This document shows positions 6,247-60,857 of a DNA stretch of 64,000 bases, piece by piece. The stretch is taken from the NCBI GenBank assembly GCA_010405405.1, contig MU004230.1, positions 3,955,119 through 4,019,118 of the forward strand, in the 5' to 3' direction. Made by a program: the position numbers and the translations under genes. Source of the stretch: Microthyrium microscopicum (taxonomy: Eukaryota). The first letter of the stretch is position 1, and every line of letters begins with the position of its first letter. The notes beneath the pieces were generated by a model. The model did not search any database, had not been told where the DNA came from, and worked only from the letters and a program-made list of their open reading frames with translations.

Positions 6247-7131
6247 TTAGCGGATGGCAAGAACAAAGGTTCCAGACGACTGAGAACCCTCGGTTGGATT
6301 TGCATTTGGATCAATTGCAACTTTATCCAACCATCGGACCAGATTCTCACCGCCTTGTTCTTCAATTCGAGTAAAGGGAAACGACAAAGCTTGCCGAAGA
6401 GGATATCGCGGGTTCGTCAATTCGCGCAGGAGCTGAGGGTGATTCCAGAAGCCCACCGGCTGCGTGGCATGCCAGTGGAGTCGAAATGGCTGGCTGTTTT
6501 TCCAGTTGCCTTGGTACCACTTTGGGCGAGGATTCTGAGCAGATGCTGGCGCCGGAGCCGTTTCAACACGTGCCTAAACAGCTACTCAGCGAGCTGTGAC
6601 TTTCTTATCAAGAGAATTAAACACTTACATATCCCCTGAACAATCCGTTGATCTGTTCATATCCTCCATTAGACTCTGTCTTGTAAAACACAAGGTAGAC
6701 GTTATCATGTGTGGCGAAGGCGCGTTTGATTTGACGCTGAGGTGTATGCGATACTACATAAATGCCGTCCGTCATAGATTCAGTCATGAATTCCATGTCT
6801 AGGGGTTCATGGAGGAAATATGTGCTCGATCGCGCGCGTGCAGACAGAGGAGATCCTGCTCCATTGCGGATGCGCTGGTTCGACGGGAAATCCGACCTTC
6901 GACGAGGTAATCCGATATCGTGTCCAGAAACCTTACTATGGTTGGGGGAAACTACAACGGTTAACAAAGCTTAGCTTCAGAGACAGACTCTCGGAGCTTA
7001 CAAGATAGAGTTCTAGCAGAGCTTCTTAGCTCAACGTATTCCTCAGCGGATTGCCCAGAATTTGGCGGATGATTTGCTTGACTCGTCGAACCACTGAAGT
7101 CAAGCGGATCAACCTCCATTTCTGTGTCCAT
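6247..7131 (-). CDS. Divergent YTH-like domain protein (copy A)
   Basis: Introns 6952-7001 and 6574-6628 give TYFLHEP..ESMTDGIYVV..QIKRAFATHDNVYLVF..FRGY|ARV..PKWY..PFRLHWHATQPVGF..LTNP..TRIEEQGGENLV, colinear with the YTH consensus (YFIIKS..S..GIW..KLN.AF..VYLIFS..F.GYARM..PF.VEW..LPF..NP..E.E..G..L). Confidence 0.75.
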
Positions 7132-9201
7132 CGCTTGAGCAGATTGCGAGGTTACACTCAAGATCTTCGAAGCTCCGGTTGACAGTGTGAGACCCTTTGA
7201 AGGCTTTGGTGGAATCGGATAGATCAAAGGTAATGTTGTGGGCAAAACAATGAAGTGGGAGGTGTAGGAGCTTCAGGCAGCCACAGTCAACCTGAGCAAT
7301 TCCGCGCGGTAGAGCTGGACCTTTTCACCTGGATCAATAGAGCTGCCAATGCTAATTCGATATTACTTGAACAAGTACCTGGGATTGCTTTCGCTCGCAA
7401 CAGATTGCTATACAGACAGCAGCGCTCCATAGGCGTTGTCTTCTCGGGATTATTTGTCGTCTGATAGGCTTTTAAAGGTTCATTGTATCAATTTTAGAAC
7501 CAATGAAATTCATTGGCAATCAAGTTATAGACTAAATTGGCAGTTTTTAAGAATTATATGCTCCTCTCTTAGAGTTGAGATATGCTCATATATTTGTTGA
7601 AAATGGTGAGAACCTCTTCAACGTAACTCATAACATTTTGTGCAGACACAAGAGATATCTTGATTTCCTATAGTATTATCTCCAGCTTTTTTCCTTTAGC
7701 CGTATAAAAAACTTATTGGATCATTGGGGTTTGAGGTCTGTCATGTAGAAGCATTGTGTCTGTAAACCGTCCGGAACGTATTTACAATCTTGATTGAGAG
7801 ATTGTCAATAGCCTCCAAATAGTCTTATAGGCTGGAGCGCTGTAATGGACGGTGGATCTACTAAGTATGAGTCCTTCGCGTTGCATGTCAGGGATTCTGT
7901 CCGAGATACCTTTTTTCCAATGCTATAAGTTCAAAGAATCGAATAAGATGACTTGTAAATGTACTGTTCTAGGAAATGGGATGGCTTGGTAATTCCATAC
8001 GATGAGGTCTACGACAACTAATTTGCTGGAGCTCTAGCTATTAGCTCTATATTTATTGCTTCTGGTAATTTGTCTTTAAAATCTTGTCCAATTCACTTTG
8101 AAATCGCTGGAGTTCTCTCCCGAGCTAAAAAAAGCTCTAGCCCAATTAAGCCTTACTTTCTTGGAGCTAAAAATAAATAACCGAGCATTCTTGCGGCATG
8201 CTATGTCTCGGAGAGTACCACTGGATCGGTACTGCAAAATAGTAAAAAATAATCGAGCGTCAATGTGCTGCCAACGTCTCGAAGGGTATCACTGGATCGA
8301 TACCCAAAAGAAATCTCAAAATCTAACACAGCGAGGACCTTTTTTTTTAATTGCCTATTTTTTCTGGACTCCTTAACTAATCTTTTGTGGGGCATTCTGT
8401 TTTTTGTCTTGCTTGAGGGCATGGTACGTTCTATTCGCAAAGATATATCAAGAATATTACTGCTCGCTCATCCCGTGTTGGAATTGAACGAGGGTCAACA
8501 ATCTAAACAAATGCAGTTGACATTGGTTGTGTCCACAACCCTGAGCAATGGAGGCTTTTGATTGGTAAGATCGCTCATGCACTAGCGCAAGGCTGCCAAG
8601 ATAAGGCTGAAAGTTAACCACACCTCATGCATTGCATCAGGAGAGCTTGTTGGATATTAAGAAACTGTACCTGAAAAATTGGCAAAGGCCATACCTACAG
8701 TTTGAAAAGGCTTCTAACAAATGGAACTCTAGAAATGAGCCCATTTGTGTCAGGTTATTCCTGGTCAATGAAGAAAGTTGGAGTGTTGGACCAATACTGT
8801 AAGGAAGGCGGATTTCCAATTTTTTGGCTAACAAGTTTAGTAACCGAGTCTTTTCATATGAAGCGTATAGGCAAACTGTCCTGCACATCTGGCAGAGTAG
8901 TCAATTTAACCTCTCAACACCTTTGAGCCACATACTTAGGTAGTATTTCGGGATTTGAGAAAAGGACCAGATCTCAGTCAGGTGTTTCTACTTGCCTTAG
9001 GTACCTAGGTACTCAAGAGAAGTGTGTGCCCCACGGGCCGTCTAGTTTCTATACCTCTAATGATCTCAATCTTGCCACTTTTGGTTAGCTTTACCTTTTT
9101 CACCCCTCCATGTCATCTCTGCCTCAACAACAACCACCTTTGAAATCTACAAACCCAATCCAGACTTTGTGCGACTTGATCATAGCGCACCGGCAACCTT
9201 C

Positions 9202-11019
9202 ATGGCGGACGGTGAGACTGACGACATATCGTCTCTCCAGTCAGTAACCATCATGACACCAACAAATAGCGAACTTTCCTCTTTGCAATCACCAGAAAGC
9301 CTTGACAACAGCACAGATCACACTACGACAGAGCCTACGTCGGCTGACTTTACTGCGATATCAGCAAACTCATTCAACCACATGCCTCAAGGCAGTACTG
9401 TTATCGATTCTCTTGATACTCAAGAGGATGGTGTCTCTAAAAAGCGTTTGGAGGATTTCGACGTAACAAGAAGATCTATAAACGCGGCATTAGTGAGACT
9501 GGAAGAAGAAGGTCGTCAAGATTCAGCCAAAAATGAGCACAGCCTCACAATAAAATTGAGAGAGATTGACTATGAGTATTGGCCGAAAATACTGCCTCTA
9601 CTCGAAGAGCTCGAGGCGAAACGGGACGAACTGCGGGAAGCGCACCATAAGAAACAACTAGACCTGGAGGCAAAGCAAGCTACAGCCAAGGAAAAGCTTC
9701 TGCTCGCGAAAGCCGACAATAAAAAGAAAAGAAAAAAATGCTTACTATCCCCGAGCAGACGAGCAAAGCGTAGGCAGGAGTTGGAGGAGTTTGAACAACG
9801 AAAAGTTGCTGGAGCCCGTAAGTAACCTTCGCATTTGGAGACCAACGTGGATTAACGTCTATAGACACAACTCACAACCCTATTGGCTCCATTGATCCTT
9901 CTCACCAACGTCATCCCGTCAACTCTACAAATATCGACAATAAGCGCATGCGTCTCGATCAACCTACGACCTCGGAAACATCTCATTCCAATACCGGGCT
10001 TGAACAGCAACTCTTACGATTTGAGCGGACAATCTCTCCGGCGGGCGATATGGTAGGTTTTTTCTTTTCACAAACACCTTCCTCTCCATTTCTCCATGAA
10101 TGTGATCATATTTCACGCATCAAAAGGCCTCCATCCGTCCTGATCGACATACTTCAGTAATCTGACTGAAACTTATCTTCCAAGTTTGATCATTTCGATT
10201 CGACCAATCTTGTCATCATATTCAATTCGTCCCCATCGCAGTTGATGATTCGGATCGCATCCGATGGTCGTTCTAGCGTATCATCCGACTTTGTCCCAGC
10301 GGACAGATCATATATTGACGCGCGCTGGTTTTGACATCTTGCTAGGTAGTATGCTGACAGACTCCAGATCTCAGAACAGCCAAACACATTGTCTTCCTTG
10401 CGTAAGTCGTATTCCTTGATCCTGATTGGCATTTCGTGGACTAATACTCAATAAAAGCCCGGGCATCAACTATTTACTTTCTGGTCAAGCCACAACCAGG
10501 AGTGACAATGGCGGAAATGATGATGGAGGACTTTCTGATTGTACCAGAAGGGCTCCATACGAAGATAGACAATCTGTGGTGGTGTTACAAGAAAGGCATT
10601 TGTATCATATTTCTTGAGCAAGAGCGGGGTCGTAAGAAATTTCATGGATGCGTAAGTATTGCCACAGATCGTAGGAATGCTTATCTAGTTGAGAGCTGAC
10701 GGGATCTTAGGCAAGAGTTACTCTGGTTCCAGAGGTTACGAGCTTCTTACTGCCATTCCCAAGCTGGTCTCGCAAAGCCAATCTTGAGAATAGCAAACCA
10801 TTTGCTGTGAAATGGGAGAGTACGCAGTGGGCGCTCTTCCGCGACGTAGGCCAAGTGCAGCGGAAACTTCCAGACAATTTGTACGATACCGACTTGAAAT
10901 CGTTCCCGTCTTACTATCAGCTGCCAGATTCTGAGATCGGAGAAGAATTGGTGATGGGAATAGAAGAGGCAGCTGCACGCGCTATCAACAAAGCCTCTGC
11001 CGGGCGTCGTGCCTGGTAG
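9202..11019 (+). CDS. Coiled-coil + basic (NLS-like) + divergent YTH-like domain protein (copy B)
   Basis: Phase-compatible exons 9202-9817, 9865-10052, 10368-10401, 10458-10651 and 10711-11019. The domain reads IYFLVKP..EDFLIV..ICIIFLE..FHGC|ARV..PSWS..KPFAVKWEST..EIGEELV. The link to the upstream coiled-coil exon is predicted only. Confidence 0.65.
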
Positions 11020-11761
11020 CCAGTCGCGAGATTCAACGACTGGAGTGTTCAACAGAAAAACGGAATATTGAACCATCGAGGTGGGCAAACTCAGACATGT
11101 TAGCGATGCCTGGGATCCATTTCAACGGTACCGATAAGTTGATTGAAATCAAATAAGCATGCTACTCCGTCAAAAGACTGGACGACTGGGTTATGGAAGG
11201 TGCAAATGGCGACAGTACAGTAAAACAATGTCTCCGGGGTGGGAGAATCAAATTGCTGCTACAGACAGAATGAGTGCGAAGCGACAGGGCAAGATAATGA
11301 ACTGAACCCCGGCCAACTTAGCCAAACTTCACTTTGTCTGTCAACCCAGTTCCTGAATTTGATACATATATAGCACTCAATATAGCGCGAGAAAGTTCTT
11401 TAACAAAGTACCATCGACGCTTTTGATGGAGATGCGTCAATGAGCAATGCCATCGTTTTGAACTGGGTGCTAATTTGAAGCAATTGTCAAGTCACGAGTC
11501 GATTAACTGCACAGAAGTGATTCTTCTTATTTAATTGGCTGAAAATGAGGCCCATGCAGACATTTGTTGCATTCTATTGGCTCAAAACGATCAGGCTGCA
11601 GCCTCACCTCATTGCTCCGCTGTTACTTTCACACCTTGCTTCGCCTTTAACACTCCATCCTTCCCCACTCTCTATCTAGTGCTCCTTATCCTTGCTTTTC
11701 TGGCTGATTCAATATCCATCCATTCGCAGCTCACAAAATCGACCTCTCGAACATTTCATCA

Positions 11762-12696
11762 ATGTCTTTCTGGTATCCCGCCCCACCACACAACTTGTCC
11801 AGCGCACATGAAGCGCAAGATGCACCAAAGATTCATGAAACTCGGGCTGAAGACGAAGAAATGCGTGATGCTCTCACTGTCGAGGCTTGTAAGTTTTCAC
11901 CTGTCGTCTCCCATCGAATGCAATGGGGGACAGCGTGATTGATGGGAGAATACCCATTAATTACCCTTCTGCAGCGCACGATCTAGGAGCTCCTTATTTA
12001 CATGCGAGCGAGCAAAACATCGACACGAGGCTAACCAAAATGCGGGTAGTGCCAGAAAAAGAGATAATCGTTCCTATCATCTCTGATGATTCTGTTCCCA
12101 CTCCGACGATGTCTAGATTCTCTGGTGAATCTGTTGCTTATTTCATGCACCGACCCAGTCAGAAAAGCTACATAGCCGAATCAATCAAAGATTCAACCTA
12201 TTTGCTGTCAGAGAGACATCAGAAGAAATTGGCCCAGGCTTTTCTAGAGCATGATCGCGTTTTCATCATCTTCTTCGACATCGCTCCAGCGAAGGAGAAA
12301 AATGGCACGTTCGAGGGACTGGTGAGTTTCACGTCTTGATGCGACTTAGAAATGAAGAAAGTTAATCAGTTCCAGGCACAAGTCAAATCCGCACCAATCC
12401 GTTCCTCTGTTGTTCCTTATCCCCCTTGGCATCGCCATCAGCATAGAAAGAATTACCCATTTCGCCTGGAATGGCTAGCTACCGAACCTGTAGGATTTTG
12501 GGAAAATCCACCTCTACTCCGCGCGTTACAAGACTCCTTCTCGACAGCAAAACATTTCAAAGAATGGCCTTGGTTCCATTCAATTGATATGGGCTTGGGT
12601 CATGCGGTAGCGGAAGGACTATGTGCGAAGGCAGCTGCTGCAACTGATAACCGAGAAACTTCAACGCCATCAGAAGCCGCTCTAATTGAGGGATGA
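11762..12696 (+). CDS. Divergent YTH-like domain protein (copy C)
   Basis: ATG 11762 (MSFWYPAP); introns 11889-12049 and 12322-12375; VAYFMHRP..ESIKDSTYLLSERHQKKLAQAFLEHDRVFIIFF..NGTFEGL|AQV..PPWH..YPFRLEWLATEPVGFW. Confidence 0.75.
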
Positions 12697-13027
12697 AGCC
12701 GAGTAACTTGTACATTGCGGAGGCTAAACGCATAAAATTGATGTTGGCCCGGCTGATTTGTTACAAGTTTTGGTCAGAGGCTATGGAGAAGACGCTTGTC
12801 AAACGGGGTCGATTGAACGGGCGCGGCGAGTATTATGCTCAAATTGATGAGTAGTCGCATTTGACCAATGGAAATTCAAGTCTTTGAAGATGCGTTACTA
12901 TTCATGACATTATATAAGACTATATTACATGGGCCCATGATTCCTAAATCCAACCAATATCCCAACACCTGAACGTTAACAAAATATCAGACAAATCATC
13001 AAAATTTTGTATCAGACAAAAGAGATT

Positions 13028-16000
13028 TTACTTTCCACCCAACAATCCACCAACAAGCGGCAGACTACCCATTCCACCTCCCTTCTTCTTCTCCTTCTTG
13101 CCACCACCAAGCATATCTGTCACACTGCCTAGACCTAGTCCACCAAGGAGTTTGTCAATACCCAAGCCTCCAAGTAGGCCGTTCACTAGACCACCAAGAC
13201 CAAGAGCATTGAGGAGCTTGCCAACCAGTCCGAGAACACCAGATAGCAACAGACCGACGGCGGCGATGATCTGGAAGAGTGGCTCGGTGAGAAGAGCCCA
13301 CAATGGGTTGAGCTTCTTCTTTGCGTGTGGCATATCTTGAAGCTTCTTCTTGGCGTTGTCGATGGTAGTGACGACTGATGTTGTGAGCTCCTTGAGTAGA
13401 TCTGCAAGGCGATACTCTTCTGGTGTAGCTTCTCTTGTTGCAGCACGGCCCTTGGCTTGTTGTGCGATGCGACCATCGGGATCAAGACCACGGAGAGAGC
13501 CATTACACTCTTGGAGGATACGACTACCTTCCTCGATGAGGGGTTTGACATTGTTGACGAGCTCTTCTTCATCAAGCTCGTCCTTTGGTGTACGATCAGC
13601 TTGTTCGATGTACTAGAGACCTGTTAGTTGATTGTAAAGTGAATACAAAGTGATTAATCGTACCTCAGTGATCTGTTTCATGACTGGCTGCACACGCTCA
13701 AGTGTTTGTTGGCAGATATTGCCCATCTTGTCAGCGAGCTCAGCATCTTCCCGCTTGTGCTTCTCCTCTTCGCTCTCATCCTCATCCACTTCCTCTTCAA
13801 CGATGTTCTCGAGAAGAGTAGCTTCACCGACGCGGTTACCGTCATTGTCAACAACGTAACCGTTGTCGTCAATCTCAAGGCCGATGCAGCGACCAAGATC
13901 ACCAGCAGTGAGGCGGCCGATGACATCTCCGTTCTCATCACGGATTTCACCCTCCTTGTTGACGTGGCGGCCAGACATGGGGTTGATCTTGCGCTCCTTC
14001 TCTTCTGGCTCCCAACGTTCAGCCTTGCCAATGGAGTTGCCATTCTTGTCAGTGATGTCACCGTCTTCGTCGACCTTGTGACCAACAAGCTTCTTGACAT
14101 CACCTTCAATGACGCGGCCGATGATGGTACCGTCGGCGGTTTGGACTGTGCCGTCTTTGGCAACAGTGTTACTGTCGAAGCCTGCAAATGGACCTTCTGG
14201 AGATGTATCTTGTCCAGAGACCAATTCAGCCTTGCCGATAACATTTCCGGAGTTGTCCCAGATTTGTCCTTGGCCATCGACCTTTCGGCCAATCATGTTC
14301 TTGAGTTCGCCCTCAGATACACGACCAACGACGGCGCCAGAGCTGTCAACGACATTTCCAGCCTTGTTGACGGTGCAGCCTGCAAGAGCAGAGAGGTCGA
14401 CTTCTGGAGTATCTTCCTCCTCGTATGGCTCAGCATGGCCCTTGACGTTGCCGTACTTGTCGATGATGTCTCCATCTTCGTCAACGGCATGGCCTACAAG
14501 GCGCTTGGCATTACCTTCGGTGAGAACACCGACGACATTGCCATCTTCATCCTCGACCTTGCCATCCTTGACAACACGGAGACCTTCGTATCCAGCGAAT
14601 GGACCTTCAGCCTTGGCGACGCGCTCGTTCTCTGGGATGAGTTCGCAACGACCGACTTGCTTTCCAGTGTCGTTGAAAATGAGGCCGTTCTCGTCACAGC
14701 GGCGGCCAGCGAGGTCTTTGGCATTGCCTTCGACGAGGCGACCGATTGGTACACCTTCATCTCCGATGACGTTGCCTTGTTTGTTGAGGATCTTGCCAGC
14801 GAGGATTGAGAGATCAGCTTTCTCTTCCTCAGCTTCTGGAACTTCTTCCTCCTCGTAGCGCTCAGCGTGACCGACAACTGATCCGCGCTTGTCGATGATA
14901 TCTCCGTCTTCATCAACGGCTCGGCCAACGAGTTTCTTGGCATCACCCTCTGTGACCACACCAACAACGTTGCCGTTCTCATCTTCGACATATCCGTCCT
15001 TGTTGACGATGAGACCCTCGAGGCCAGCGAAAGCGCCCTCCTCATCAGGGTCTTCAGCCGCAACAGTCTTGGCGCGACCAATGACATGGCCCTTGTTATC
15101 CCAGAATTGGCCTTGGTCGTCGGCTTGGGTGCCGAGCTTGGATAGCTTCTTGGCATCGCCTTCGACGAGTTCACCCACAATGACACCGTCGCTGTTGATA
15201 AGCTTGCCTGCCTTGTTGACCTTGAGACCTTCGAGAATGGATAGAGGTGGAAGATCATCACCCTCCTCGCCTTCCTCAGCACCCTCTTCCTTGGCTTCTT
15301 CGCCTTCGACACCTTCAGCGCCTTCTTCAGCGCCCTCCTCTTCAGGGTTCTCTCCGGCTTGAGGAAGAGTCTTGACGCGGCCGATAACATTGCCTTTCTT
15401 GTCGAGGACTTCACCCTTCTCATTACATTTTTGGCCAGCACACTTCTCAATGTCACCATCAACAAGTTCGCCAATGACGTCGCCGTCCTCGTTGAGAATC
15501 TGGCCCTTCTTGTTGACCTTGAGGCCTTCAAGAACGTCGAGACCAGGTGTATATTGGTTGGCCTCTTCTTCGACATCGGCAAGCTCCTTCATAGCTTCGT
15601 CGGCGGCTTCACCAGGGATGACCTTGACGCGACCAATGACGTTGCCGCTCTTGTCGAGGACTTCGCCCTTCTCGTTGACCTTCTTGCCAGCGCACTCAGC
15701 AATGTCGCCGTCAACAAGTTCACCAAGTTCTTCACCGTCAGAGTTAAGAATCTTGCCCTTCTTGTTGACCTTGAGGCCGTCCAAGATGCGCAGGTCAGGT
15801 AGACCACGAGCGAGAATTTCTTGGGCGCCTTCAGCGAGTTCGACCTTGCCAATGACGTTGCCTTCTTCATCGAGGACTTCTCCTTGGTCGTTGATGGTCA
15901 TGCCCTTGACTTGGTCGATGTCACCTTCAGCAAGGTTGCCAATGACATTTCCTTCTTGGTCAAGAACATCTCCATCGCTGTTGATTTCGTGGCCCTCGAG

Positions 16001-17263
16001 GGCTTCAATGCCTGGGAGTTCGGCATCGATGGCTTCGCCTTGCTCGTCGACGGCATCTTCGGCACCGTCAACGGCTTCGCCAGCTTCGTCTTGGGCTCCT
16101 TCGGCACCATCTTCAAGGTCTTCGCCGGCGCCGTCGACTTCATCGCCAACATCTTCGCCAGCGTCTTCGGCGTCTTCTTCGAAGCCGTCAATGTATTGGC
16201 CGGCATCGGGGTGTACTTGAGCGCGACCAATGACGTTGCCGTCGTCATCGAGGAACTCGCCCTTCTCGTTGAGGGTACGGCCCATGAGTTCATGTGGGTC
16301 ACCTTCAGTCAATTGACCAATAGTGTCGCCATCGTCGTTGAGGATATTGCCAGTAGCGTCAACAGTGAGACCTTTGAGGACTTCAAGACCTGGGACATTT
16401 GATGCGGCGCCCTCAGCCTTGCTCTTGGCCTCGTCGAGGAGCTCTTTGGCCTTCTCGGGAAGAAGTTCGCAACGACCGACAAGATCGCCGTCATCGTCTA
16501 GGATTTCGCCGTCATCGCCAATAGTGTATCCAGCAAGATCTTCAGCGTCACCTTCGACTAAGTGGCCAATGGCATTGCCTTCACTGTCGTGAATGAGACC
16601 TTCGTCATCGACCTCGAGGCCAGTGAGAAGTTCGACGCCAGGTACATCAGGGAGTTCTTGGCCAGTAGCATCTTCAGCAGTGTCCTTGACACCTTCAGCA
16701 GCGTCGCCAGCAGTTTCGCCAGCATCGTCGACTGTGCCCGTAGCCTCTTCTTTGACGCCTTCGAGGTCACCTTTGCCGAGTTTGCCAGCAGCACCAGCTC
16801 CACGGCTCGCAAGGTTCTTTGCGCCGCCAGCGAGACTTGAGCCGGTCTTCTTCACGCCTTCGGTAGCGTCTTCTGTGTCGTCCGCGTCCTCGGAGATGGC
16901 AGTGTCGCCAGCCTTTTCGGTCGCATCGTCGTCTTCTTCATCCTCCTCGGGCTCTTCGTCTTCTCCTTCTGTGGCACCGCCAGTAGCCTCCTCTACATCT
17001 TCTTCTGGTTCGGGGGCCTTTTCTTCTAGATCCTTGGGAGCATTCGATACCTTGGATCCGACATTTGATGGTGCGTCCTCGGCTTGCTCCTTAGTGTCCT
17101 CGACATCGTCTTCGACGTCAGGTTTTTGGGTTTTGGGTGCTTGTGGTGTGGATGGTGTTTTTGATGATTGGCCTCTTGAGCCAGATGCTGCTTGCTGTGG
17201 CTTGCGAGCGAGCTTTGTGGGAGTTTTGGGGTTGGCCTTGCCAGCTGCGGGTGAGGGAGCCAT
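13028..17263 (-). CDS. Large acidic DUF3659-repeat protein (often annotated 'LEA domain protein')
   Basis: Many repeats of LEGLKVNKKGxIxxxDGxxIGELVEGD; intron 13613-13663 joins in frame to a helical, Gly/Leu-rich hydrophobic C-terminus ending at 13028. An alternative in-frame ATG lies at 17392. Confidence 0.85.
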
Positions 17264-19907
17264 GTTTGGATTTTTGCGTTTGCGGGAAGGGGGAGTAGGG
17301 GAAGCGTCTCTTTCAGCGCGAGATGATGAGGGAGTTGGAGAGATTCGAGATGGTGTAGGTGGGAATGAGTAGAACTGATACCGACTTGACATATAATGTT
17401 GGTCACAGTCGAGTTTTAGCGAACTGGAGATCCAATTGGCATTTACAGAGGTTTATGGTGTTGTGTTTTACAGAGAGTTGAGGTGTAAAAAGGGATAATG
17501 GATTGAAGAGATGTTAGTGGTAGAAGATATCTCCTAGATATATCTGGGCATCATGGTACATGAATCTAGAGAAATACTACGATTACATCATAACCCACAA
17601 GGCTGGCAAGGCCCGTCAGTGGCCAACATACATGTTCTTGCAAAGTTGCTAGGCTGGAAAAGTTGCGTCGACTGTGAGTCTGTGACACTGGATAAAGTTG
17701 GAAGAAGGCAGGATGTCACAGACCTGAGTGGAACCCCAGCACAACCATGATACATCAGCCTTGCGAGACAAGTTGTTGAGAAATTCTAGGCCAGAGCACG
17801 CAGAGTACTTGAAAAGCAGCCAGGGGTTTGATAGAGAATGATGTCGTCCTTTGGCCAGGTGGAAACAATGAGAGCGTTGGAACGCCTCTCTGGCAGTCTT
17901 CTGCGAGAAATCCTGGCCATAATCCTGGTATGCATCCTGGCATTGCGGCATTGTCTAGCATCTTGATCCTTGGAAAAACACCAACACCAAAAAGGGTCAA
18001 AGTGCTGATCCTATACGCAGCACTGCAGCTTGACGTCAGGAATGTTGCACTGGAACCAATAATTAACCGGAAAGTAAACACCAAGTTGCTCGTTTCGATT
18101 GAATCGACGGGGATAATTGAGTAAACTGGGGTAAACTCGACGTCTCAGACAAAGCCCATTCGTATGCGCCGCTTTGGGGCTGCTCTTGAAGGACCGAATC
18201 TGGTACCCCTGGTCAGGATGGGGCAAACTGGAACATACTCCGTAGTGACCTTGCTGCATGGAGAAGTGCAATCAGTGCAGGCACATCTGGTGTTCGATAA
18301 GTCGATATAAAATAGTTGGCATTCTCGCGAACATGTCGTTGACTAGTAGCTTTACCCCATATTTGGGAATGGACTGCAAGTACCTATCAGTCAACTGGCA
18401 GCAGCTCTACAAGCCAACGGTCGCGGCCGCTTGTCATGCCCACGTTGACGGAGGACTAGTGTCAGTGGCCACGAGGAAACGTCGGAAACTTGGCAATTCA
18501 TTTGTCGGGAAAGTAGCAGAAAGTACCGACTGACGCAAAGCTAAGGGATATTTAGCAGTGGTCACTGGTGGGAGGGGCTGGTGGTGGACTGGTGGACTGG
18601 TGGAGGAGAAATGGTTGGAGCTCTGCCAGCTTCGAGCTCGTGAGCTCAATCTTGGTGGAGATCAGCGGTGACATCATCAAGATCAGCCAAAAGTGTTGTG
18701 CCTCGCGAACGTGCTGATCGACGATGCCACTCTGCCCATCCAGCATCTGGACATCGCCAAGTACTTCTCCTCTTTCTCATTTAAAAAATCTCATGCGATT
18801 TCCTGCTGCTTAATTTCTGGTCTTGTCATTCATTGGTTTTCAGGAACGGTAGATTCACTGCTGCTTGGTGGAAAATCCACACTAGTTTTCAGCCTTGCAC
18901 GCTGTCATTGGTCAATTGAGAACAAGATAGCCTCAGCTGCTAGAAATTAGAACCATTTTCAGGAACCGAAGTACTAGTATCCGCTTCGGGGATTGAGGAG
19001 GGCATATTTGGTCCCTCAAATTATATTTAGACTCTGCGTGAGCATGTGGTTACAGGCTTTCAAAAGCTGCTGACAGCCTCCGTAAACTTCCTATATACCT
19101 TACCTACATGCTCCCGCGGGTAGTACACTCTTTCATTTCTATTCTAAGTTTCCATCTTAGATATTTCCCTTTTAACTAAATCTTTGGCCTTGATCCTTGG
19201 CTTGCACACCCTGATGAAGATCGAGAAATTGGACAGTTCCACTATGATTTTGTTGGCGAGGTCCACTGTTCCCCAGATTGGTACACCATGAAAGTACAGC
19301 TTTATCTGCCCAAAGAATCCAAGTCAAGAAAATCATAATCTTCTTTTCTTTCAAGATCATTCAAGAAGTTCTCTTCACGCAGGCATTCTTTATAGCGTAT
19401 TTCTAGTTGTGGAATCAGAGATAAATGGCAGTCATCACCGCGTACCTTGATCTCGAAGAGCCCGACGAATACGGCAAATACACATGCCTTTGGGGAATTG
19501 CGGTTGCCCAGCTGTGAATACAATAGAACATGAGGCTATCAGGCTCCATTTACCCACCCATTGGTTTGGACTATCGTTTATCGACCCAAACCTCCCCAGA
19601 CCCCGCTTCAGCTATGTAGATATATCTCTCTCTTCCGTCCTGTGCGTCCATTTCTCTGTCCTCTTTCTTCTTTGGCGCCATCTCCAACATGTTGGGACTT
19701 TTCTCTTCCTCGAAGGAGCTTCCTTATAACCACCCTTCAAGACAGGTTAGGTCTTTTGCCGTTTATGGCAAAGACCTTGAGTTTCCTGCCTTCACAACTT
19801 ATCCTCAGCAAGATCATCGTGAGTCTGAAGAGAGAATCAGAATCGCATCAGTAATTGATATTCGTGCTACGCCATGGAATAATGTGATCCGGGCCAATCT
19901 TCACAAA

Positions 19908-20600
19908 ATGGAAGCTACCAGTCTTCCTTCTCTAGCGTGAGTTTCCCTTCTGCTTGACATACTTCCAGGTCTTTCTTGATTGAGGACCGTCATCTACCCA
20001 TCACGGTGAACTCTCTGCCTACTATATCGCTGCCACTATTGTCCACAACCTAAACCTGTACACTAACAACAAGCCAGTGCGTCACCCCAAGAAGTGCGCG
20101 AGTTCCTCTACTTCATTCTCGCCAACCAAACATGGTCCAAGATCCCTGATGACATTCCCCAAGAAATCTGCTCCACCCTCATGGTCTGGAAATGGAACGG
20201 CAAGAAACTTCGTCAACTCGATACCATTCGCAAAGGCCGCCTTTGCCCACCCAAGTGGACCGATGTATATGGTTATGTTCACAACATCTCCAGCTGGAAC
20301 CGAGCACGCATTGAAAGCCGCATCAGAACAGTTGTGGGTAAGCTCGTTAAATTAGAAGAGATAGCTCAGGCCAGAACGATAGTGTGCGAGAAGGAGGGTG
20401 CGGGAGCCAAGGTCAAGGTAAGTCGTTGATGGTTGCTGGTGTATGGAGCGGAGTGCTAATATGATCTTCAGAGTAAGGGCTGGAAACGGTTCTTCTGCTT
20501 TGGTGATGAGTTTGATGTCATTGAGGATACGGCGAGTGCTAGCTCTTGCTCTGTTAGGACTTCATCCTTGTGTGATGAGAAGAGAGCGCTTTACACTTAG
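19908..20600 (+). CDS. Hypothetical protein
   Basis: Three phase-compatible exons (introns ~19937-20077 and 20418-20471 with GTGAGT/GTAAGT donors and CTAAC/CTAAT branch points): MEATSLPSLAASPQEVREFLYFIL...ALYT*. Confidence 0.6.
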
Positions 20601-20815
20601 TAAGTTTGGGCTTGAGAAAGCAGCAACTTGCTCAGCGCACCTCACATGGAAAGTATCAACCTGAGCTGATTGTGGGGGAAGCCACTACGGGGTGAGAGGT
20701 CTTCTTTCGAACATTATTACAAATTAATGCCTACTACTGTCTGTAATAATCTAGCAATGCCTCATCTCAGCCTTATCGTACATTACTCCTCAGTCTCACG
20801 GGACCATGAAAGCAT

Positions 20816-25215: not shown

Positions 25216-26255
25216 ATGAGATCTCTTGGAAGCTTCCTCCTGAACACCGGGCAGGTTTTGCTCGGTTTCAAGAACTCCACCTCCACATCCACGACTCAGC
25301 TAGGAACAGGCCGGGCTCAAAGCTGTCCAGCTAACCCTCCTCTAAGTTGTTCGACGGGCTTGTCTGCTCTCGAAGATGACTCTTGCTGTCTGAATTATCC
25401 TGGCGGTCAGTTTGCGCAGACACAATTCTGGAACTCAGATCCGCATAGAGGAACACCTGGCTACCTTGGCCCCGAGAAGAGCTGGACCATCCATGGTCTA
25501 TGGTAATGCCGCAGCTCCAGTTTATTATTGCCCAGGCTCACCTATCTTAGGCCTGATCACTGCAACGGTCGATATGATTCCGTCTGCGATTGTGACCGCA
25601 GCGGCGATTGCAGCAGCCGGAATTACAAATGTCGTGGAGACGCATGTAATCGCGACTATTCGAGTATTTCAGCCATTATGGAGAAGTTCGAGCAACAAGA
25701 ACTACATCAATTCATGCAACAGTATTGGAAAGGCAATCAGGGCGATGAGAGCCTGCATCAACATGAGGTAATAGGGACATGTTTCTCCAAATAAATTTAC
25801 TAATCAAAGCATAGTGGAGCAAGCACGGAACCTGCATCAATACTCTAGAGCCGAAATGCTATGATGGCTATGTTGCGGCACAAGAAGTCGTCGATTATTT
25901 TAGAGTTGCTGTAGATTTATTCAAGCAGCTTCCAACTTACGAGGCAAGTCTCACATTTCTCATTGGAAAGTTTCTGACTAACAGCAAACAGTGGCTGGCC
26001 AAGGCGGACATTGTTCCCACGCTTGCTAGAACATATAATCGAGATGAGATCCTAGCAGCTTTGCATCTACCACGCGGCGTAAGTGCTGTCATTGGATGTC
26101 AAGGGGCAGAATTACGTGAAGTTTGGTACTTCTTTAACGTTCGTGGCTCACTCCAAAATGGCCAATTCGTGGCATCGAGACCAGACTTTTCTGGAACCAA
26201 CGGACCAGGGAAGTCCTGTCCGCTGCAAGTGAGATACTTGCCCAAAGATATCTAG
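25216..26255 (+). CDS. Ribonuclease T2 family
   Basis: CAS I WTIHGLW|PD and CAS II HE|WSKHGTC; introns 25503-25550, 25768-25814 and 25944-25991 (GC-AG). Confidence 0.95.
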
Positions 26256-26664: not shown

Positions 26665-28136
26665 CTAATCTGTTCTCCGCTTCTTCGAATCCTTGGTGTC
26701 CTCTTCACTGCTTGGGCTGATTCTCTTTCGTGCCAAGGCCTTCTCATTTCCTTTCTTCACCTGGATGTTGCATCCCTGTAGCTTAAGTGCCCGTGTAAGA
26801 GCACTGCTTGGCCGCATACCTGGGAAATCCTTGGCGGTGTAGACCTGGAAGGGTTCGGACAAGACCTCAGTTAGGATCGGGGATGATCCACCAACACGCA
26901 AGTTCTTGTGGTCGATCCGCATAAGCACAAACCGTAGGCGATACTTGCCATGTGTTCGGCAAGACAGATCGGGGAAGCAGAAGAAGCAACCTTCGACATC
27001 ATGTTCATCTTTAGCAACGCTGGGAGATGCCACCAATTGGCCCATGAGTCGCCGCGTAGTCCGTCTATCGGGTTGGATGAGAGCAGTTTCTTCGCCAGTT
27101 CCATCGGCGTTCCAAAGGGTGCAGTGAACTACGTTCAAGGAGAATCCCAGCTCGTCTAGGTTCTCAATCTCGCCAGTGTCCTGGTGGCTGACGACTAGCT
27201 GGATGATTGGGGGTGGGTCTATCACCCGGCGGTCTCGCTCGCCAAATCCACATGCTCTTGCGGCAATCGGTTGTTGTCTAACTTTGAGCTCGTAGTTCCA
27301 TGGACTAGAATAAGGTTAGCATTTAGATGCAGAGCTTGGCGGGACATGTATTACTTTTCAGGTTCTGCCACCGGCACAGGCGCCGGAATTGGAACTGGCA
27401 TCAAGCTCTGTGGATGTGCATGGGGATGTGCGTGCGGATGATCTGCATATTGAGGTGGTGCATATGAATGAGGAGGTGGAGGAGGCGGTGGTGCAGATAT
27501 AGCCGTTTGAGGGATGGCAGGGCGATAGTGGGAAGGCGGTTGACTATATGATGGAGGATAACTTGGAGCTGGATGATAAGTGGGTGCTGGTGATGGAATT
27601 GAGTGGTATGAAGGACGTGTTTGCTCTACTGGTGACATGTAGGACTGCTCAGGATGATATGCTCTTGGCTCGTCAGCATATTTGTGAGTAGTGGGCCTGG
27701 AAGTGTGTGGTGGAGGCGGCGGTGGCGGTCTTGAATCTATGCTAGATCGTGGTGGAGACCTTTGTGGTGGTGAATATGGTTTAACTTCTGATCGGGGAGG
27801 GGTGTATGAATGTGGTGATAGAAGCTTTTCTAATGGAGCTGCCTGGCTAGAATATGAACGAGGCTGAGATCTTGGAGCCTGTGCTGGAGGTGGAGGTGGA
27901 GGGTTAGCATGAATTGAGGGTAGTTGTTGAGTTGGTGACTGTTGATATTCTGATCTCGGGCTATGCTGTGGCGGTATTGCTAATGGTGGAAGCTGTATAG
28001 GCTGAGGAAGCCTTCGATTTGGATAGTCCATGAATGATGGTCCTGCAAAACTTGGGGCGTTTTGAGTTTCCGCCATGGTTGGAGAGCCAGATGTATATGA
28101 ATGAGCGGACGAAGCCACTGGGTGAGGACGGGACAT
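26665..28136 (-). CDS. velC: Velvet-domain regulator, VelC type
   Basis: Pro-rich N-terminus; intron 27305-27354; C-terminal velvet domain YELKVRQQPIAARACGFGERDRRVIDPPPIIQL..FCFPDLSCRTHGKYRLRF..SEPFQVYTAKDFPGM. Confidence 0.88.
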
Positions 28137-55500: not shown

Positions 55501-57197
55501 TCAATATTGAACTTTTGCAAGATATAAAATTGCTTCAATAACCAATATTGAACAATGCCGAAATAAGTGGCAAGATATTTCCTGTAGAACGAAAGATATA
55601 ATCTGATGTCAAGCGAAGAGGAATTCAAGTTTGGAAGAGGAAAGATGCTAATCGTGCGCTATATATTGCTTGGGGTGTGAATTCCTAATAATGATTAAGC
55701 CTATTCCTCGTTCACGAGTTGAAGAAGAACTTAAGTTGACAAAATTTCAGGCTAGCCTTAATAGGTTACCTGAAACTCTCACATAGCCCCTTATGCCCAA
55801 AAAATGTCACTGTAATCCCCTATGCCCATATGCAACATGGTTCTGAGGGTTCAAATCCCTCTATCGGCTTACCAGACTTCAAACTGGGTCATGGTTTTTT
55901 TTGCATCTTTTCACCCCTTTTATGCTTGTAGACATCGAATTTCATGTCAATCCTTTCTTTGCACCTAATTTTCGACTTCCCTTAGAGTTCCTATGTCTTT
56001 TCATTTTGCATCTAATGTTAATGTGCCGTAGCCTAGAGTTGAAAGCATGTCATTACCTACCTCTAGCCCTTTTGATTATGGTCAGATCCAAACGATATAT
56101 CCAGAATCTACGGTCTACTGCAAACTATTTTCGACTCCGAGCCCATGAGCTGACGCAGAAAAATCTTCCTTTTCAAAAGATTTATATACCATACCTATGG
56201 CGGCGATATAGCGAATCTGTCCACATTCTTTGAAGCTCTTCGCTTCCAAGTATCTCAAGGCTTTCAGATTATCCGAACCATAGAATGGGCTCAATCAATC
56301 ATCCCTCCAAAGTTGTTAAATTCCTTCGACGAAGATCGATAACGATAGGGTTCTGAGAAAGAGAAATCAAGAAGATAAAGTACAGTACTTGGTCAAGGGC
56401 TAAGGCTGAACCACGTTTTTATTGGCTTCAACAAACAGGGTTCAGCAGGGTCTGGGATCAGATCTTTGACATGCCGTCTTTTCAATTGGTTGAGACCCAT
56501 GTGCAAGCCGCAAGGCTGCCAAGATAAGGCTGAATGGCCAACCTCACTTCTTGTTTTGCGAGAGACAAAGTAATTGACAAATCTGAATGGGGAAATGGTT
56601 AGTGAGTAGTAATAACCGGTCTTCAACCAGTAGGAGAAGGGGCCTCGGACCGAATCAATTTGTGGTGATGAGGCTCACGATTTGATCATGGGCATGAAGT
56701 GTACTTAAATCTCCTTTAAGTCTGAAGATAGCTCCGCATTGCTTCAAGTGTACGAAGCTGAAATATTCGGGGTGTGATGGAAATCGAAGGCGGTGCTTTA
56801 GATAGGAACATTGTACGAGATAATACAAATTTTCATAGATTATAGAAAACTGGCTGAGGTTGCAATTCATTTCTACCTCACGAACTACTTATAATCCGAC
56901 TAGGCTGATGCAGAATAGCTATACCACCTCGAACAGAGGCACATTTTTCTCAGTCAGCCCGCCACTGACCTCGTTACCCTCCTCATTTCCCATTCATCTC
57001 ATTTGAGACTCCCAAATTCTCCCTCGTACACCATCGTCACACAAAATTTGCAGCCACTCTATTTACAATAAAAACCTACTAGCGATTACTCTTCAAACTC
57101 TGATTCAAGGGGGGACCACTACCTACTAGTAGCACCACTGAAAAGCGCCATTATGGACGACAATGCGCAACTCTAGGACCTCTCCATCCTGCAAAAG

Positions 57198-57770
57198 ATG
57201 TACCAAGGTCGTGTTCCTACAAACCAAGAGATGAAGGACCTCGCGAACGAATGGCATACGCAAGAACAGCGATTCGATCTTCTAGAAGAACGGATACCCC
57301 AAATCCACCGCCAAGGAGTCGAAGACGCTTGGAAAGACCTCGAAATGGCACAAAAAACATTCGCCAATAGCCTGTCAGAAAATGACGACGACTGCGCCGA
57401 GCTTTATAAAGAGCTTAGGGAAGAGAAGCAATCCACCAAGATCGAGTACGAGAACACCGCAAAGGTTCTACTGGAGCAAATGGAAGCAGGAGAGCAGGTC
57501 TTGGAGGGACCATTCGAGCAAATGGCGAAGCGACATCTCGCCGTCTTGAAAGAATATCGGGACCTGCAAATGGACTTGGAACAGATGATTGGGCCTGATG
57601 ATTTGACTGACGTTCTCGACCATCTCGCACCTTACCTAGGCTTCTTTCGCAAGGGCCAGGGCGAGGGAAAAGATTTGAGAGGAAACTGGTCCATTAGATA
57701 CGACAAAGCGCAGGAGGCCTTGTGCAAAGTATCCAATGTATTCAAACCGTATCAGTCTGATGCTGCTTGA
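57198..57770 (+). CDS. Orphan acidic helical/coiled-coil protein
   Basis: 190-codon ORF rich in E/Q/K/L; an upstream in-frame ATG at 57153 is cut off by TAG 57174-57176. Confidence 0.6.
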   Translation: MYQGRVPTNQEMKDLANEWHTQEQRFDLLEERIPQIHRQGVEDAWKDLEMAQKTFANSLSENDDDCAELYKELREEKQSTKIEYENTAKVLLEQMEAGEQVLEGPFEQMAKRHLAVLKEYRDLQMDLEQMIGPDDLTDVLDHLAPYLGFFRKGQGEGKDLRGNWSIRYDKAQEALCKVSNVFKPYQSDAA

Positions 57771-58302
57771 TTAATGCTTGGGGTGATCGTATGTCTACTC
57801 TTCACTCTCGGCCCTTCTTCTGCTAATCTAAGACAGGACTCACTTGGGTTGTGTGGAGACTTAAGAGAACTGGGTCATGCAGCACTTTGATTGCGGCGCT
57901 GTTGGTGGAAAGTTCTTTTCAGCTTTCTCTTCAGCTGATCGTTTGCTTAGTAGCAAAGGACGCTTTACTTGGACTTGTACAAAACTCTCGGCGTAATTTG
58001 ATGAGATAGGCAGAGTTCTTTCTGATGGTGTCTGCCGCTGACGGCTTGATATTGGTCCTCAGTCTAGGTCGGAAATGTAATTGGGGCTGCCAAAAAAGTG
58101 AAGAAGACTTATAATTCTACACTTGCTTTGCTTGCAGCACACCGTGATACATTCTAAGGTTGTACCATGACGTCTCTCCGCCCATTTAGCTCTGACCAGC
58201 AGTCTACTCCTCTAATATGAGTTACAGTTTATCGTTCAACTTCCCATATTTCTCCCAACCCATGCTCATCTCGTTCGCTGCACTTTGACTGAAGTAGTGT
58301 AC

Positions 58303-60857
58303 CTAATGATTGTCAATCAAGTAGTCGATGTTCTTAGAATCCCAGCGTTTGCTAGCATTGAAGGTCTGGTTGTGTTTTTCGCGTAGTATGTTGTGGATAC
58401 GTTCGTGGGCTGATGTGCTGATGGAGTTCTGGATAGGTTGAGCAGCAGAGCGAGTGACAGTGACGGCCGAACTTTTGTCGTTTTTGATGGCTTCTCCAGT
58501 AGATGGATGCATGGCCTCGCTCAAGTTCTTTCTCACCATCGGATCTAGAATCTGATAGAATGGCGGAAATAGAATCCAGTCCTCATCGAAAAGACGCTGC
58601 TCTTTGAGTAGAATCTCTCCAACTTCAGTGAAGAATACAGATCGCTTACTCATCCACTGTACAACAAATGCCTTACTTTCTTTGGCCTCTGTCTTGTCAT
58701 GCCAGGCGGGAAGCGGAATTGGAAACTGAGACCCGAGCTGGACTCGCTTGACTTCGGCCTAATTTTTGATCAGCTCTCGTTTCAAATTTGGAAGTTTTCT
58801 TGAACCCTTGCAGCGAATACTCACATATCCATGAAACATCCTATACTCCCGATTCTCTTCATGAAAGATCAAGAAAACTCGTTGCTTTGACCGATACAGC
58901 TGGCATAGCAAGTTCTCGGCCGACTTCGTCACAACCAGATAGTTCTCGCTCATCATGTCCTCCATTGTCACTCCAGGTGGAATCTTGACCAAGCAAACGT
59001 GGCTGAGAATTGCTGTGTTCTTCTCGCTATGCTTTTGTAACATAACTTCGGGCTTACTTGTAGAGTTCTGTGGTGTTGGCTGAATTTGAACCTAGCATTC
59101 GTTAGTGGGATACAGAAGACCAATGTAATGTTAACTCTGAAAGATTCTTCTGTCTCCTCGTTGAGCAATCCCATTCAGCGCTATGAGGATCATGCAGTGG
59201 CATATGGGCCATCGAGTGCGGAGAGGTTAATTCGAAAATCATGATGTGGGGAAAAGCGCGATTTCAGAGACATCTTGCAAGTTGTGATCGCATGCTATGG
59301 GTTCCATCGCATTCGGTGGGAGCCATAGCATGCGATGCAGCCACCATGTTGTCCGGTGTTATCGAGTGTACGTCAAAAAGGTAATTCCGCAAAGAGGCAA
59401 CTTACCATAGAAGATGTTTTCCGAGCAGCCATAGGTTGATCAGCTTGAACAGACCCCTCGCCATTGTCGATAGAATCCGGATGCTGAAGATTTTGCAAAA
59501 GGTCTGATGACTGATTCGTGACATCTGATGCCGCCGCTTTTGTGTATAGTGCTTCTGCAATCGAATAGCCCAAGTTGGTGTCAATTTTATGTAGCCATGG
59601 CCATTTCTTGAAAGCACATGAGGGCGAGAAAGAGTTTTCTATAGCACGCAGCAGCTTAGGATCTTCCCAAAAGCCAACCGGTTTTGTAGCTGCCCAATTC
59701 ACTGGAAACGGCTCATATCTTGTACGATGTAGTGGATGCCAGGTAGGATAAGGGTTCACGTCAGACTGCGGCATTGGTGGTCTCTCGACTCGTGCCTTGT
59801 GAATGATTAGCCGCCGTATCCATTTATCAACAGCTCTGAAAATGAGCACTTACTAGTCCCTTAAAACTACCATTGTTCTCTCCCTTAGGCGCAACCGTGT
59901 AGAAAATGATGAAAACGTGATCATGGTCTGTGAAGGCTTGATTCACTTGTTTCTGTGTCTTTTCTGATAGAATGTAGATCGATTCGGCCATTGATAGTGC
60001 TATGACACCACTTTGAGCGGGCCGGTGGATAAAGTAAGCAACTGACTGGCCATTGGATTTGAATGCAGTCGGAGTGCAATCGAAATGATCATTATTAGTC
60101 AGGGCGATTGAGAGATAATGTGGCACTGTTGGGCTTATAGTTAGTTCGGCCTTTCTCCGTGGTCCGCCAATCCAGATTATTGGCAGAAGAATTGTAGAAC
60201 TTACAGGCCTCTACATCAGTGTCTTCTCGTAGTCTGATTGGAAGATCTTCATTTTCATCCAGATCTTCAGCGCTCTTTTGCTTCTTTCGAGATTGCAAGC
60301 CTCTCGTCCAGCCTTCCATTTTCGCTTGAGCAACTTGAAGTCTTACCATTCGAAGTTGTGCAGGTGTTAGTTCTTCTTCAAGCGTGTCCATATTGGAAGC
60401 TTTCCGTTTTCCGGAAGACATGGATGGCGTCGAGATTGAGGGTGCGGGTTTGAGTTTTGTAACGTCAACGTTCTTTTGGGCCAATTCTTGAGTATATTCA
60501 GGTACCAGAAGATGCAGGTAGAATTCGAGTTCAGCGTCATGAGCGTTCTGGGTCAGGCCCCTAGAGAGATACTGCTCTACTTCAGCAGATGGTGCTTCTA
60601 TAGTGTTAGTGTTATGTAAGAGATGAATGAATTGGTAATTTTGAGAATAGAATCTGATAGCACTATTTATCATTAGAGTACCACAGAAACTATCCTACGA
60701 TAAGATGTTTCCCAGTGCTTTGATGTTGCCAAATAACGTGGGTGGATGAGAGTCCTGCGATAAAAGATTTACCTTGAAGTAGTGCTTTGCTAGACCAGAA
60801 CGCTTCGTGCTCAGCGTCCGAAGCATCGCTCGATGGAGCGTGGTGCCAGAAAGGCAT
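58303..60857 (-). CDS. Tandem double YTH-like domain protein (C-type + B-type domains)
   Basis: Start MPFWHHAP (60857) resembles copy C's MSFWYPAP; the first acceptor is uncertain. Introns 60126-60204, 59796-59853, 59092-59405 and 58759-58824 are all phase-compatible. Domain 1: VAYFIHRP..SIYILSEK..VNQAFTDHDHVFIIF..FKGL|ARV..PTWH..PFPVNW. Domain 2: VCLVKIPPGVTMEDMM..VFLIF..FHGY|AEV..PAWH..AFVVQW. Confidence 0.7.
59287..59336. repeat. Inverted repeat / hairpin inside predicted intron
   Basis: ATCGCATGCTATGG (59287-59300) and its exact reverse complement CCATAGCATGCGAT (59323-59336), with further imperfect inner pairing. Confidence 0.85.

Follow-up and report, generated by a model that had tools for sequence, protein, structure and literature searches.

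The best matches to the domains described here, among solved structures, are YTH domains of the DC type (TgCPSF4, AtCPSF30-L, YTHDC1 and YTHDC2). The m6A pocket of YTHDC1, as described in PMC6112328, has a cage made of W377, W428 and L439, while N363 and N367 provide hydrogen bonds to the base; loop 519-526 is equivalent to 428-439 (PMC8313237). S. pombe Mmi1, with an Ala at the N367 position, does not bind m6A; it uses another surface to bind unmethylated RNA (PMC6112328). A fungus normally has one or two YTH genes, which are conserved. A fungal survey that left out proteins <300 aa counted 868 YTH proteins in 695 species, about 1.2 per species (PMC10826363), in agreement with the earlier statement that ascomycetes carry few such genes; given these numbers, four extra YTH genes in one species are unusual. 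The canonical fungal proteins, of the Pho92 and YTH1 clades of PMC10826363, show good conservation between species. A lineage-specific rise in the number of YTH genes is known from land plants, where the ECT (YTHDF) family grew from one to eleven members (PMC10617740).

We analyzed 64,000 nucleotides of contig MU004230.1 of Microthyrium microscopicum, a Dothideomycete living in leaf litter; this whole stretch is called the window below. It contains five YTH-type domains, which are parts of four deposited gene models (KAF2675393, KAF2675394, KAF2675395 and KAF2675413). The four genes belong to the same domain family as the canonical fungal ones, but they form clusters and are either short or of a different build, and no orthologues were detected for them in searches of limited reach. 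We estimate at about 0.6 the probability that four genuine genes, spliced and coding for protein, contain the five stretches as YTH domains, and that these recognize RNA with a changed and probably m6A-independent specificity. A set of four extra, clustered and deeply diverged YTH genes is a natural experiment in ligand change by this fold.

Five paralogous domains in four gene models

The four deposited proteins map exactly, letter for letter, onto the window:

6247..7131, minus strand: gene A (P0003, KAF2675393), 259 aa; exons 7002-7131, 6629-6951 and 6247-6573; YTH domain at residues about 86-238
9382..11019, plus strand: gene B (P0005, KAF2675394), 386 aa; N-terminal coiled coil, then YTH domain; exons about 9382-9818, about 9865-10052, 10368-10401, 10458-10651 and 10711-11019
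11762..12696, plus strand: gene C (P0001, KAF2675395), 264 aa; exons about 11762-11888, about 11976-12321 and 12376-12696
58303..60857, minus strand: gene model C'+B' (P0002, KAF2675413), 619 aa, with C' and B' in tandem; C' YTH exons 59854-60123 and 59406-59795; B' YTH exons 58825-59091 and 58303-58758

Each YTH domain is encoded by a pair of exons:

6250-6573 + 6629-6951, minus strand: YTH exon pair of A; phase-0 intron 6574-6628
10458-10651 + 10711-11016, plus strand: YTH exon pair of B; phase-0 intron 10652-10710
11977-12321 + 12376-12693, plus strand: YTH exon pair of C; phase-0 intron 12322-12375
59406-59795 + 59854-60123, minus strand: YTH exon pair of C'; phase-0 intron 59796-59853
58306-58758 + 58825-59091, minus strand: YTH exon pair of B'; phase-0 intron 58759-58824

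The sequence-only reading had presented the family as hidden and undescribed, which does not hold, since all four models are deposited and all four proteins already bear the UniRef name "YTH domain-containing protein". Its last position, 60857, falls on the start codon of the model for C'+B'. In this model C' and B' are joined by a predicted 314-nt intron (59092-59405, reading GTAAGT...ACTAAC...TAG). The reading frames are open in all five copies and the splice sites are consensus. Structure prediction places helices over residues 14-144 of gene B.

The proposal of five related domains at 6.2-7.1, 10.4-11.0, 11.8-12.7 and 58.3-60.1 kb was borne out by tblastn and by a family HMM: these loci hold five paralogous domains, and the rest of the window holds none. 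When the 10 exon translations were searched against the window with tblastn, A, C and C' were connected through both halves of the domain (E 8e-27 to 2e-10), as were B and B' (E 1.6e-9 to 1.5e-11), and the two types were joined through the C-terminal half (C-terminal half of A to B, 1.8e-6; C-terminal half of B to C, 4.7e-5). Just four matches fell outside the five loci, with E 0.45-0.72. A family HMM, trained on the five copies and applied to all six-frame ORFs of at least 25 aa, recovered the 10 exons alone (E 5e-40 to 1e-21, next best E 1.1). This search is circular for its five source copies and is informative on the absence of a sixth, which was not found among these ORFs. Of the motifs first named for the family, F.G[YLC]A[RQE]V and P.W are present in all copies, and the other three are found in fewer. 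YF..xP occurs in four of the five, PF.[LV].W also in four (B' reads AF), and AF..D.V[FY][LI][IV]F is limited to A, C and C'.

All five domains share a phase-0 intron at one homologous position, with exon 2 beginning in every copy with the equivalent Ala of the "A[RQE]V" motif. Among these intradomain introns, an RNA joint confirms that of A only. Both introns of gene A are confirmed by RNA contigs joining 6951>7002 and 6572>6628 (CT..AC ends), and two introns of gene B by contigs joining 10051>10367 and 10401>10458 (GT..AG ends); one contig spans 10753-11391. The introns are thus used in A and B, at low contig depth. This depth, a poor measure of expression, is 1-5 over A and B vs 119-640 over neighbouring genes.

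Family membership, fold and the m6A pocket

The assignment to the YTH family holds. Pfam PF04146 (YTH; gathering cut-off of 22.1 bits) matched C with 45.7 bits (E 7e-12), A with 44.7 bits (E 1.4e-11) and the C'+B' protein with 74.9 bits in two stretches (E 6.9e-21), B' by itself reaching 35.0 bits. Four of the five domains thus pass the cut-off; B, with just 15.8 bits, lies under it. A phmmer search of the PDB with gene C matched the YTH domain of Toxoplasma CPSF4 (7ng2) with E 0.0027. The family profile, run against the PDB, gave TgCPSF4 (7ng2, 2.5e-8), AtCPSF30 (5zuu, 5.4e-5) and YTHDC2 (1.6e-3), and 32 of 32 rows among the matches listed were YTH-domain entries.

Structures were predicted for A and B with AF2, from alignments of paralogues only (7 rows); pLDDT per 10-residue block across the domain is 66-93 (A) and 50-88 (B). 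Foldseek returned 154 matches at E<=0.001 for model A, all YTH among the matches listed (E 3.6e-9 to 7ng2; TM by target 0.62-0.79, with YTHDC2 at the top), and 138 for model B, all YTHDC1 among the matches listed (E 2.4e-6). VIA-align superposed model B with Z 12.7-14.1 over 131-149 residues (rmsd 2.8-4.5); Mmi1 has the highest Z (14.1), tied with YTHDC1 (13.5). The ESM Atlas's own models matched YTH clusters with TM 0.75 (A) and 0.64-0.70 (B). Because both predicted structures, A and B, can be superposed on YTH domains of known structure, at 13-24% identity, the structural test that the sequence-only reading had set for itself, a failure to superpose on YTH, EVE or PUA folds, does not refute it. 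The core of the YTH fold is invariant across the copies.

The copies share with the DC-type proteins the Pfam family and the fold, as well as the F-x-G-x-A strand, the second cage Trp and the F-x-x-x-W strand. Unlike them, they carry neither zinc fingers nor a helicase nor any other known domain, and their pockets differ. We mapped the pocket on HMMER alignments to 7ng2, at 15-25% identity, using the positions that we take to be YTHDC1 N363, N367 and W377, counted on the YTHDC1 sequence. The m6A pocket appears half kept in these alignments. The equivalent of W428 is Trp in all five copies, and the first cage Trp (W377) is replaced by Tyr in A, C and C' and by Phe or Tyr one alignment column earlier in B and B'. 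In A, C, C', B and B', respectively, the N363 equivalent reads L, S, A, Q and P and the N367 equivalent F, Y, V, T and T, i.e., both base-contacting Asn are replaced in every copy of these low-identity alignments. This makes doubtful the earlier suggestion that the copies read modified bases. The third wall of the cage (L439), placed by its distance to the next Phe, reads N, K, R, N and E, polar or charged in all copies. Plant ECTs are of the DF type and have kept the full aromatic cage, whereas the M. microscopicum copies are DC-like with a degenerate pocket. Copy A has another Trp five residues past the invariant one and two before the L439 equivalent. YTHDF proteins show the same spacing, two Trp five residues apart. 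Copy A could thus retain m6A reading through a complete Tyr/Trp/Trp cage.

In an alternative reading, the copies are genuine m6A readers, whose Tyr/Trp cage (Tyr/Trp/Trp in A) would clamp the methyl group and whose expansion would diversify the fates of methylated mRNAs, as in the plant ECT family. The second cage Trp and an aromatic residue at or beside the first cage position, both found in all copies, are in line with this, as are the additional Trp of A, the basic A, C and C' domains, and the finding that, among solved structures, YTH domains of the m6A-binding CPSF30 type come closest by profile. However, the equivalents of N363 and N367 are replaced throughout and that of L439 is N, K, R, N or E. 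The loss of N367 is one of the reasons given for the lack of m6A binding by Mmi1 (PMC6112328). We consider m6A reading rather unlikely. In our preferred reading, the copies most likely bind RNA and have probably lost the reading of m6A. They resemble Mmi1 in having a fungal YTH fold and a pocket without an N367-type Asn, although they show no specific sequence affinity to it (profile E 0.25), and Mmi1 is a single gene whereas the copies form a cluster. The likeness is one of fold and pocket; DSR-motif binding, exosome recruitment and the meiotic role are those of Mmi1.

By domain pI the copies fall in two types, basic (A, C and C', about 9) and acidic (B and B', about 6). The acidic pI of B and B' sits poorly with RNA binding.

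Age of the copies, genomic setting and relatives

The paralogues are 19-54% identical, and 7 of their 10 pairs are saturated at synonymous sites. The three computable pairs gave dN/dS of 0.25 (C-C'), 0.34 (C-B') and 0.37 (B-B'), values that are rough because dS is near or beyond saturation, and pN is smaller than pS in all 10 pairs. The copies are old duplicates under constraint. The recent, fast-evolving burst that had been proposed for them is at odds with the saturation of dS in 7 of 10 pairs and with dN/dS of 0.25-0.37 in the other three.

These results also bear on whether the copies, all or in part, lack a function, as duplicates in decay or as over-predicted models. The low depth of RNA contigs over A and B, the status of each of the four proteins as a singleton for which no orthologue was found, and the Pfam score of B would all fit such decay. 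Yet no frame is interrupted and the splice sites fit the consensus, RNA contigs show introns of A and B in use, the core of the fold does not vary, and pN remains below pS in all pairs despite saturated divergence. We regard decay as very improbable.

Nor does the locus look like accessory DNA, as had been suggested: the neighbours are core genes (carbamoyl-phosphate synthase, UCH deubiquitinase, velvet factor and RNase T2) on a contig of 4.5 Mb, and none of the 29 long ORFs scanned has a transposon domain. In another scenario, the copies would read a ligand other than m6A in RNA, such as a modified DNA base or a small ligand, in the manner of prokaryotic EVE/ASCH domains and possibly for genome defence. 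The pocket is remodelled rather than erased, and EVE clusters are among the hits of the Atlas structure search, but with lower TM than the YTH clusters (0.62 vs 0.75 for A, 0.52 vs 0.64-0.70 for B). The top Pfam, PDB-profile and fold matches are all YTH and none is EVE; Pfam gave no EVE or ASCH match at E<=10. The copies are neither fused to nor next to a nuclease or another effector domain. With no transposon domain in the ORFs scanned either, we find this scenario improbable.

Searches of limited reach (a half-domain phmmer query and word- or pattern-limited searches) found no relatives outside M. microscopicum, which is consistent with the claim of lineage specificity. The canonical YTH gene of the species (A0A6A6UIJ6, 657 aa) lies elsewhere in the genome (PMC10826363 supplement). 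The four window proteins were not found in the part of that supplement examined; the survey could not have retained the two shortest, as it excluded proteins <300 aa (PMC10826363).

A possible Mmi1-like function

In the reading we prefer, these old paralogues are products of DNA duplication, all five domains sharing the intradomain intron, and the four genes add to the canonical 657-aa one. The copies keep the YTH fold and core with, apparently, half of the m6A pocket, and may recognize RNA with a changed specificity that probably does not depend on m6A, like fission-yeast Mmi1. Their N-terminal parts, disordered or coiled-coil, might recruit partners. Should RNA binding by the copies not require m6A, this would be a second, independent example after Mmi1. 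If the C'+B' model is right, one polypeptide can work with two unlike YTH domains. Annotation calls for caution, as a protein named "YTH domain-containing" need not be an m6A reader.

A bolder version of this reading, which we put forward tentatively, is that a lineage-restricted clade with the YTH fold dropped m6A reading for a new ligand, either an RNA motif or another modified base. The clade would include the first tandem of two different YTH domains and might form an Mmi1-like nuclear RNA-surveillance module of independent Dothideomycete origin. Basic clusters were read by eye in P0005 and P0002, and on this basis the two proteins may be nuclear.

Five related YTH domains in four deposited genes

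The translations of the ten YTH exons were searched against the window with tblastn. We recovered five related two-exon domains, at the places where the sequence-only reading had put them. Three make up a first cluster (A, B, and C) and two a second one (B' and C'):

6250-6573 and 6629-6951 (-): copy A
10458-10651 and 10711-11016 (+): copy B
11977-12321 and 12376-12693 (+): copy C
58306-58758 and 58825-59091 (-): copy B'
59406-59795 and 59854-60123 (-): copy C'

Both halves match among copies A, C, and C' (E from 8e-27 to 2e-10), and likewise between B and B' (E from 1.6e-9 to 1.5e-11). Across the two types, it is the C-terminal half that provides the link, e.g., from A to B (1.8e-6) and from B to C (4.7e-5). 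Beyond the five loci, tblastn gave only four hits in the window (E 0.45-0.72), and an HMM of the five copies, run on all its six-frame ORFs, found the ten exons only, the next ORF having an E of 1.1. The motif order originally proposed for the family is found in the copies. In every copy, the second exon starts at the homologous Ala of 'A[RQE]V', and all five have this phase-0 intron in common, which points to the DNA duplication of a single ancestral gene.

Four database proteins align letter for letter with the window and carry the five copies.

Deposited proteins carrying the YTH domain copies (protein; length; copies; accession)
P0003; 259 aa; copy A; KAF2675393
P0005; 386 aa; copy B; KAF2675394
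P0001; 264 aa; copy C; KAF2675395
P0002; 619 aa; C' then B'; KAF2675413

Their genes sit on a contig of 4,545,044 bases. NCBI labels all four as hypothetical proteins of Microthyrium microscopicum, and UniRef as 'YTH domain-containing protein', each being a singleton cluster at 90% identity. The sequence-only reading had called the family hidden; since its proteins are deposited and named by UniRef, it is not hidden from the databases. In gene B, the open frame extends beyond the deposited start on its upstream side (9202-9381, +), with an in-frame ATG at 9202-9204, so the protein may be 60 residues longer than P0005. Some RNA contig depth (0.36) is found in the bin 8672-9338.

Fold, m6A pocket, and functional reading

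Against the Pfam YTH profile (cut-off of 22.1 bits), C scores 45.7 bits, A 44.7, P0002 74.9 over two stretches, and B' alone 35.0, while B, at 15.8 bits, is under the cut-off. Searched against the PDB, the family profile gave 32 rows, all of them YTH-domain entries. The best are Toxoplasma CPSF4 (2.5e-8), Arabidopsis CPSF30 (5.4e-5), and YTHDC2 (1.6e-3), and weaker matches include YTHDF1 (about 0.08) and Mmi1 (0.25). We modelled A and B with AF2 from a shallow alignment of the paralogues alone, and obtained 10-residue block means of pLDDT across the domain of 66-93 for A and 50-88 for B; helices cover residues 14-144 in the latter model. Both models superpose on solved YTH domains, with Foldseek E of 3.6e-9 for A (TM by target up to 0.79) and 2.4e-6 for B. 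In VIA-align, model B has a Z of 14.1 with Mmi1 and 13.5 with YTHDC1, effectively a tie. The ESM Atlas's own models match YTH clusters with a TM of 0.75 for A and 0.64-0.70 for B, and EVE clusters rank below these for both copies. The sequence-only reading had made such superposition a test of its YTH claim. As the models of A and B do superpose, the attempt at refutation fails and the fold assignment stands. The copies are members of the YTH domain family. In the ESM Atlas, the nearest feature cluster of A and B (scores of 0.91 and 0.92) has 79 members, 'YT521-B-like domain-containing' proteins that are short (174 aa) and come mostly from Ascomycota. These short YTH-only proteins might be distant kin of the family.

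To locate the m6A pocket, we mapped its positions via HMMER alignments to the Toxoplasma domain, and the chain positions that we take to be equivalent to N363, N367, and W377 of YTHDC1 were counted on the sequence of that protein. The equivalence of the pocket loop was taken from PMC8313237. In YTHDC1, the m6A cage is made of W377, W428, and L439, with hydrogen bonds from N363, N367, and S378, and the fact that Mmi1 does not bind m6A is partly credited to an Ala at the N367 position (PMC6112328).

Residues of the copies at the equivalents of YTHDC1 pocket positions
W428; Trp in 5/5 copies
W377; Tyr in A, C, C'; Phe or Tyr in the preceding column in B, B'
N363; L, S, A, Q, P in A, C, C', B, B'
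N367; F, Y, V, T, T in A, C, C', B, B'
L439; polar or charged in 5/5 copies

Judged from these residues, the copies lack one defining feature of m6A readers, the hydrogen-bonding Asn pair at N363 and N367, and the family is probably outside the m6A-reading class. In copy A, a Trp stands two residues ahead of the L439 position and five after the invariant Trp, the latter being the spacing of YTHDF proteins; this copy may still be an m6A reader. The domains also differ in predicted charge, A, C, and C' being basic (pI of about 9) and B and B' acidic (about 6).

We infer that the four YTH proteins of M. microscopicum most likely bind RNA, like Mmi1, with an altered specificity that does not depend on m6A. 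The N-terminal coiled-coil or disordered parts would act as adaptors.

Transcription and constraint

RNA contigs were available from one run bearing the same species label; they carry GT..AG joints and are therefore derived from RNA. These contigs show the splicing of the two introns in A (6952-7001 and 6574-6628) and of two introns in B (10053-10367, of 315 nt, and 10402-10457), and one of them covers the 3' end of B. Over A and B the contigs have a depth of 1-6, versus 119-640 over neighbouring genes; such depth is a poor measure of expression. The contigs on 1-20000 leave 12007-12673 (the domain of C) uncovered and the share of the run index for the second cluster is 0.00, blanks that say nothing about expression. 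The intron predicted to connect the two domains of P0002, C' and B' (59092-59405), carries GTAAGT, ACTAAC, and TAG signals.

This 314-nt intron and the 315-nt one of B are unusually long for a fungus and occupy equivalent positions, directly 5' of a B-type domain. We rejected the presence of a decayed YTH domain in the long intron of B or in the stretch ahead of B' (roughly 314 nt, offset about 3 nt from the intron), where HMM scores are negative. Homology between this intron and this stretch was also rejected: their local DNA alignment scores 18.0, while shuffling gives 18.1 on average and attains the observed score in 170 of 300 cases.

Reading frames are open in all copies and pN is lower than pS in all ten pairs. 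The dS is saturated in seven of these, and where dN/dS could be computed it is 0.25 (C-C'), 0.37 (B-B'), and 0.34 (C-B'). By these sequence comparisons, the five copies are old duplicates under constraint and not the product of a recent burst.

Relatives and genomic setting

We searched the N-terminal half of C' with phmmer against 1.84 billion representatives and obtained four hits with E<=0.001, three of which are the window's own proteins. The fourth, P0004 (861 aa, E 3.8e-5), is a bacterial-type repeat protein matched in seven repeated stretches, which we rejected by eye as a repeat-driven false positive. Word-indexed protein searches returned the window's own proteins only (1 of 134, 1 of 384, and 2 of 8000 scored candidates), and none of 135 matches to a three-sequence pattern in metagenomes was confirmed as a relative. 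These searches are limited in reach and are hence weak evidence of absence. In the literature on fungal YTH proteins or M. microscopicum, we found no paper describing the family; among the papers listed for the species, none concerns YTH by its title. At the level of titles and abstracts, none of the papers found on two or dual YTH domains has a tandem-YTH protein as its subject, and no paper on YTH proteins in Dothideomycetes was found. A survey of fungal YTH proteins left out those under 300 aa, and in the part of its supplement covered here the only M. microscopicum gene is a different one, the 657-aa A0A6A6UIJ6 (PMC10826363).

The window is ascomycete DNA with 43-54% G+C. The copies have ordinary chromosomal neighbours, i.e., a carboxylesterase, a UstYa-like protein, a large DUF3659/DUF6987 protein, a formin-like GBD protein, a velvet factor, an RNase T2, a lipase, the carbamoyl-phosphate synthase large chain, and UCH and M28 peptidases. 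A transposon domain was found in none of the 29 long ORFs scanned. This setting does not support the accessory DNA of the sequence-only reading.

Some neighbours deserve mention. The large gene at 13031-17452 (-) encodes 12 DUF3659 repeats and DUF6987 (Pfam E of 3e-257 and 2e-82). Within the window, both G+C content (53-54%) and RNA contig depth (343-641) peak in this stretch, whose 51-nt intron (13613-13663) is RNA-confirmed. An RNase T2 fragment (25815-26252, +) adjoins the velvet-factor gene (26668-27315, -), both lying between the YTH clusters. Finally, within 685-3623, the carboxylesterase gene (685-2376, +) adjoins the UstYa-family gene (2729-3154, -; E 1.3e-20), and introns in both are RNA-confirmed. 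The UstYa family is one of mycotoxin and RiPP biosynthesis, and the pair may be part of a RiPP cluster.
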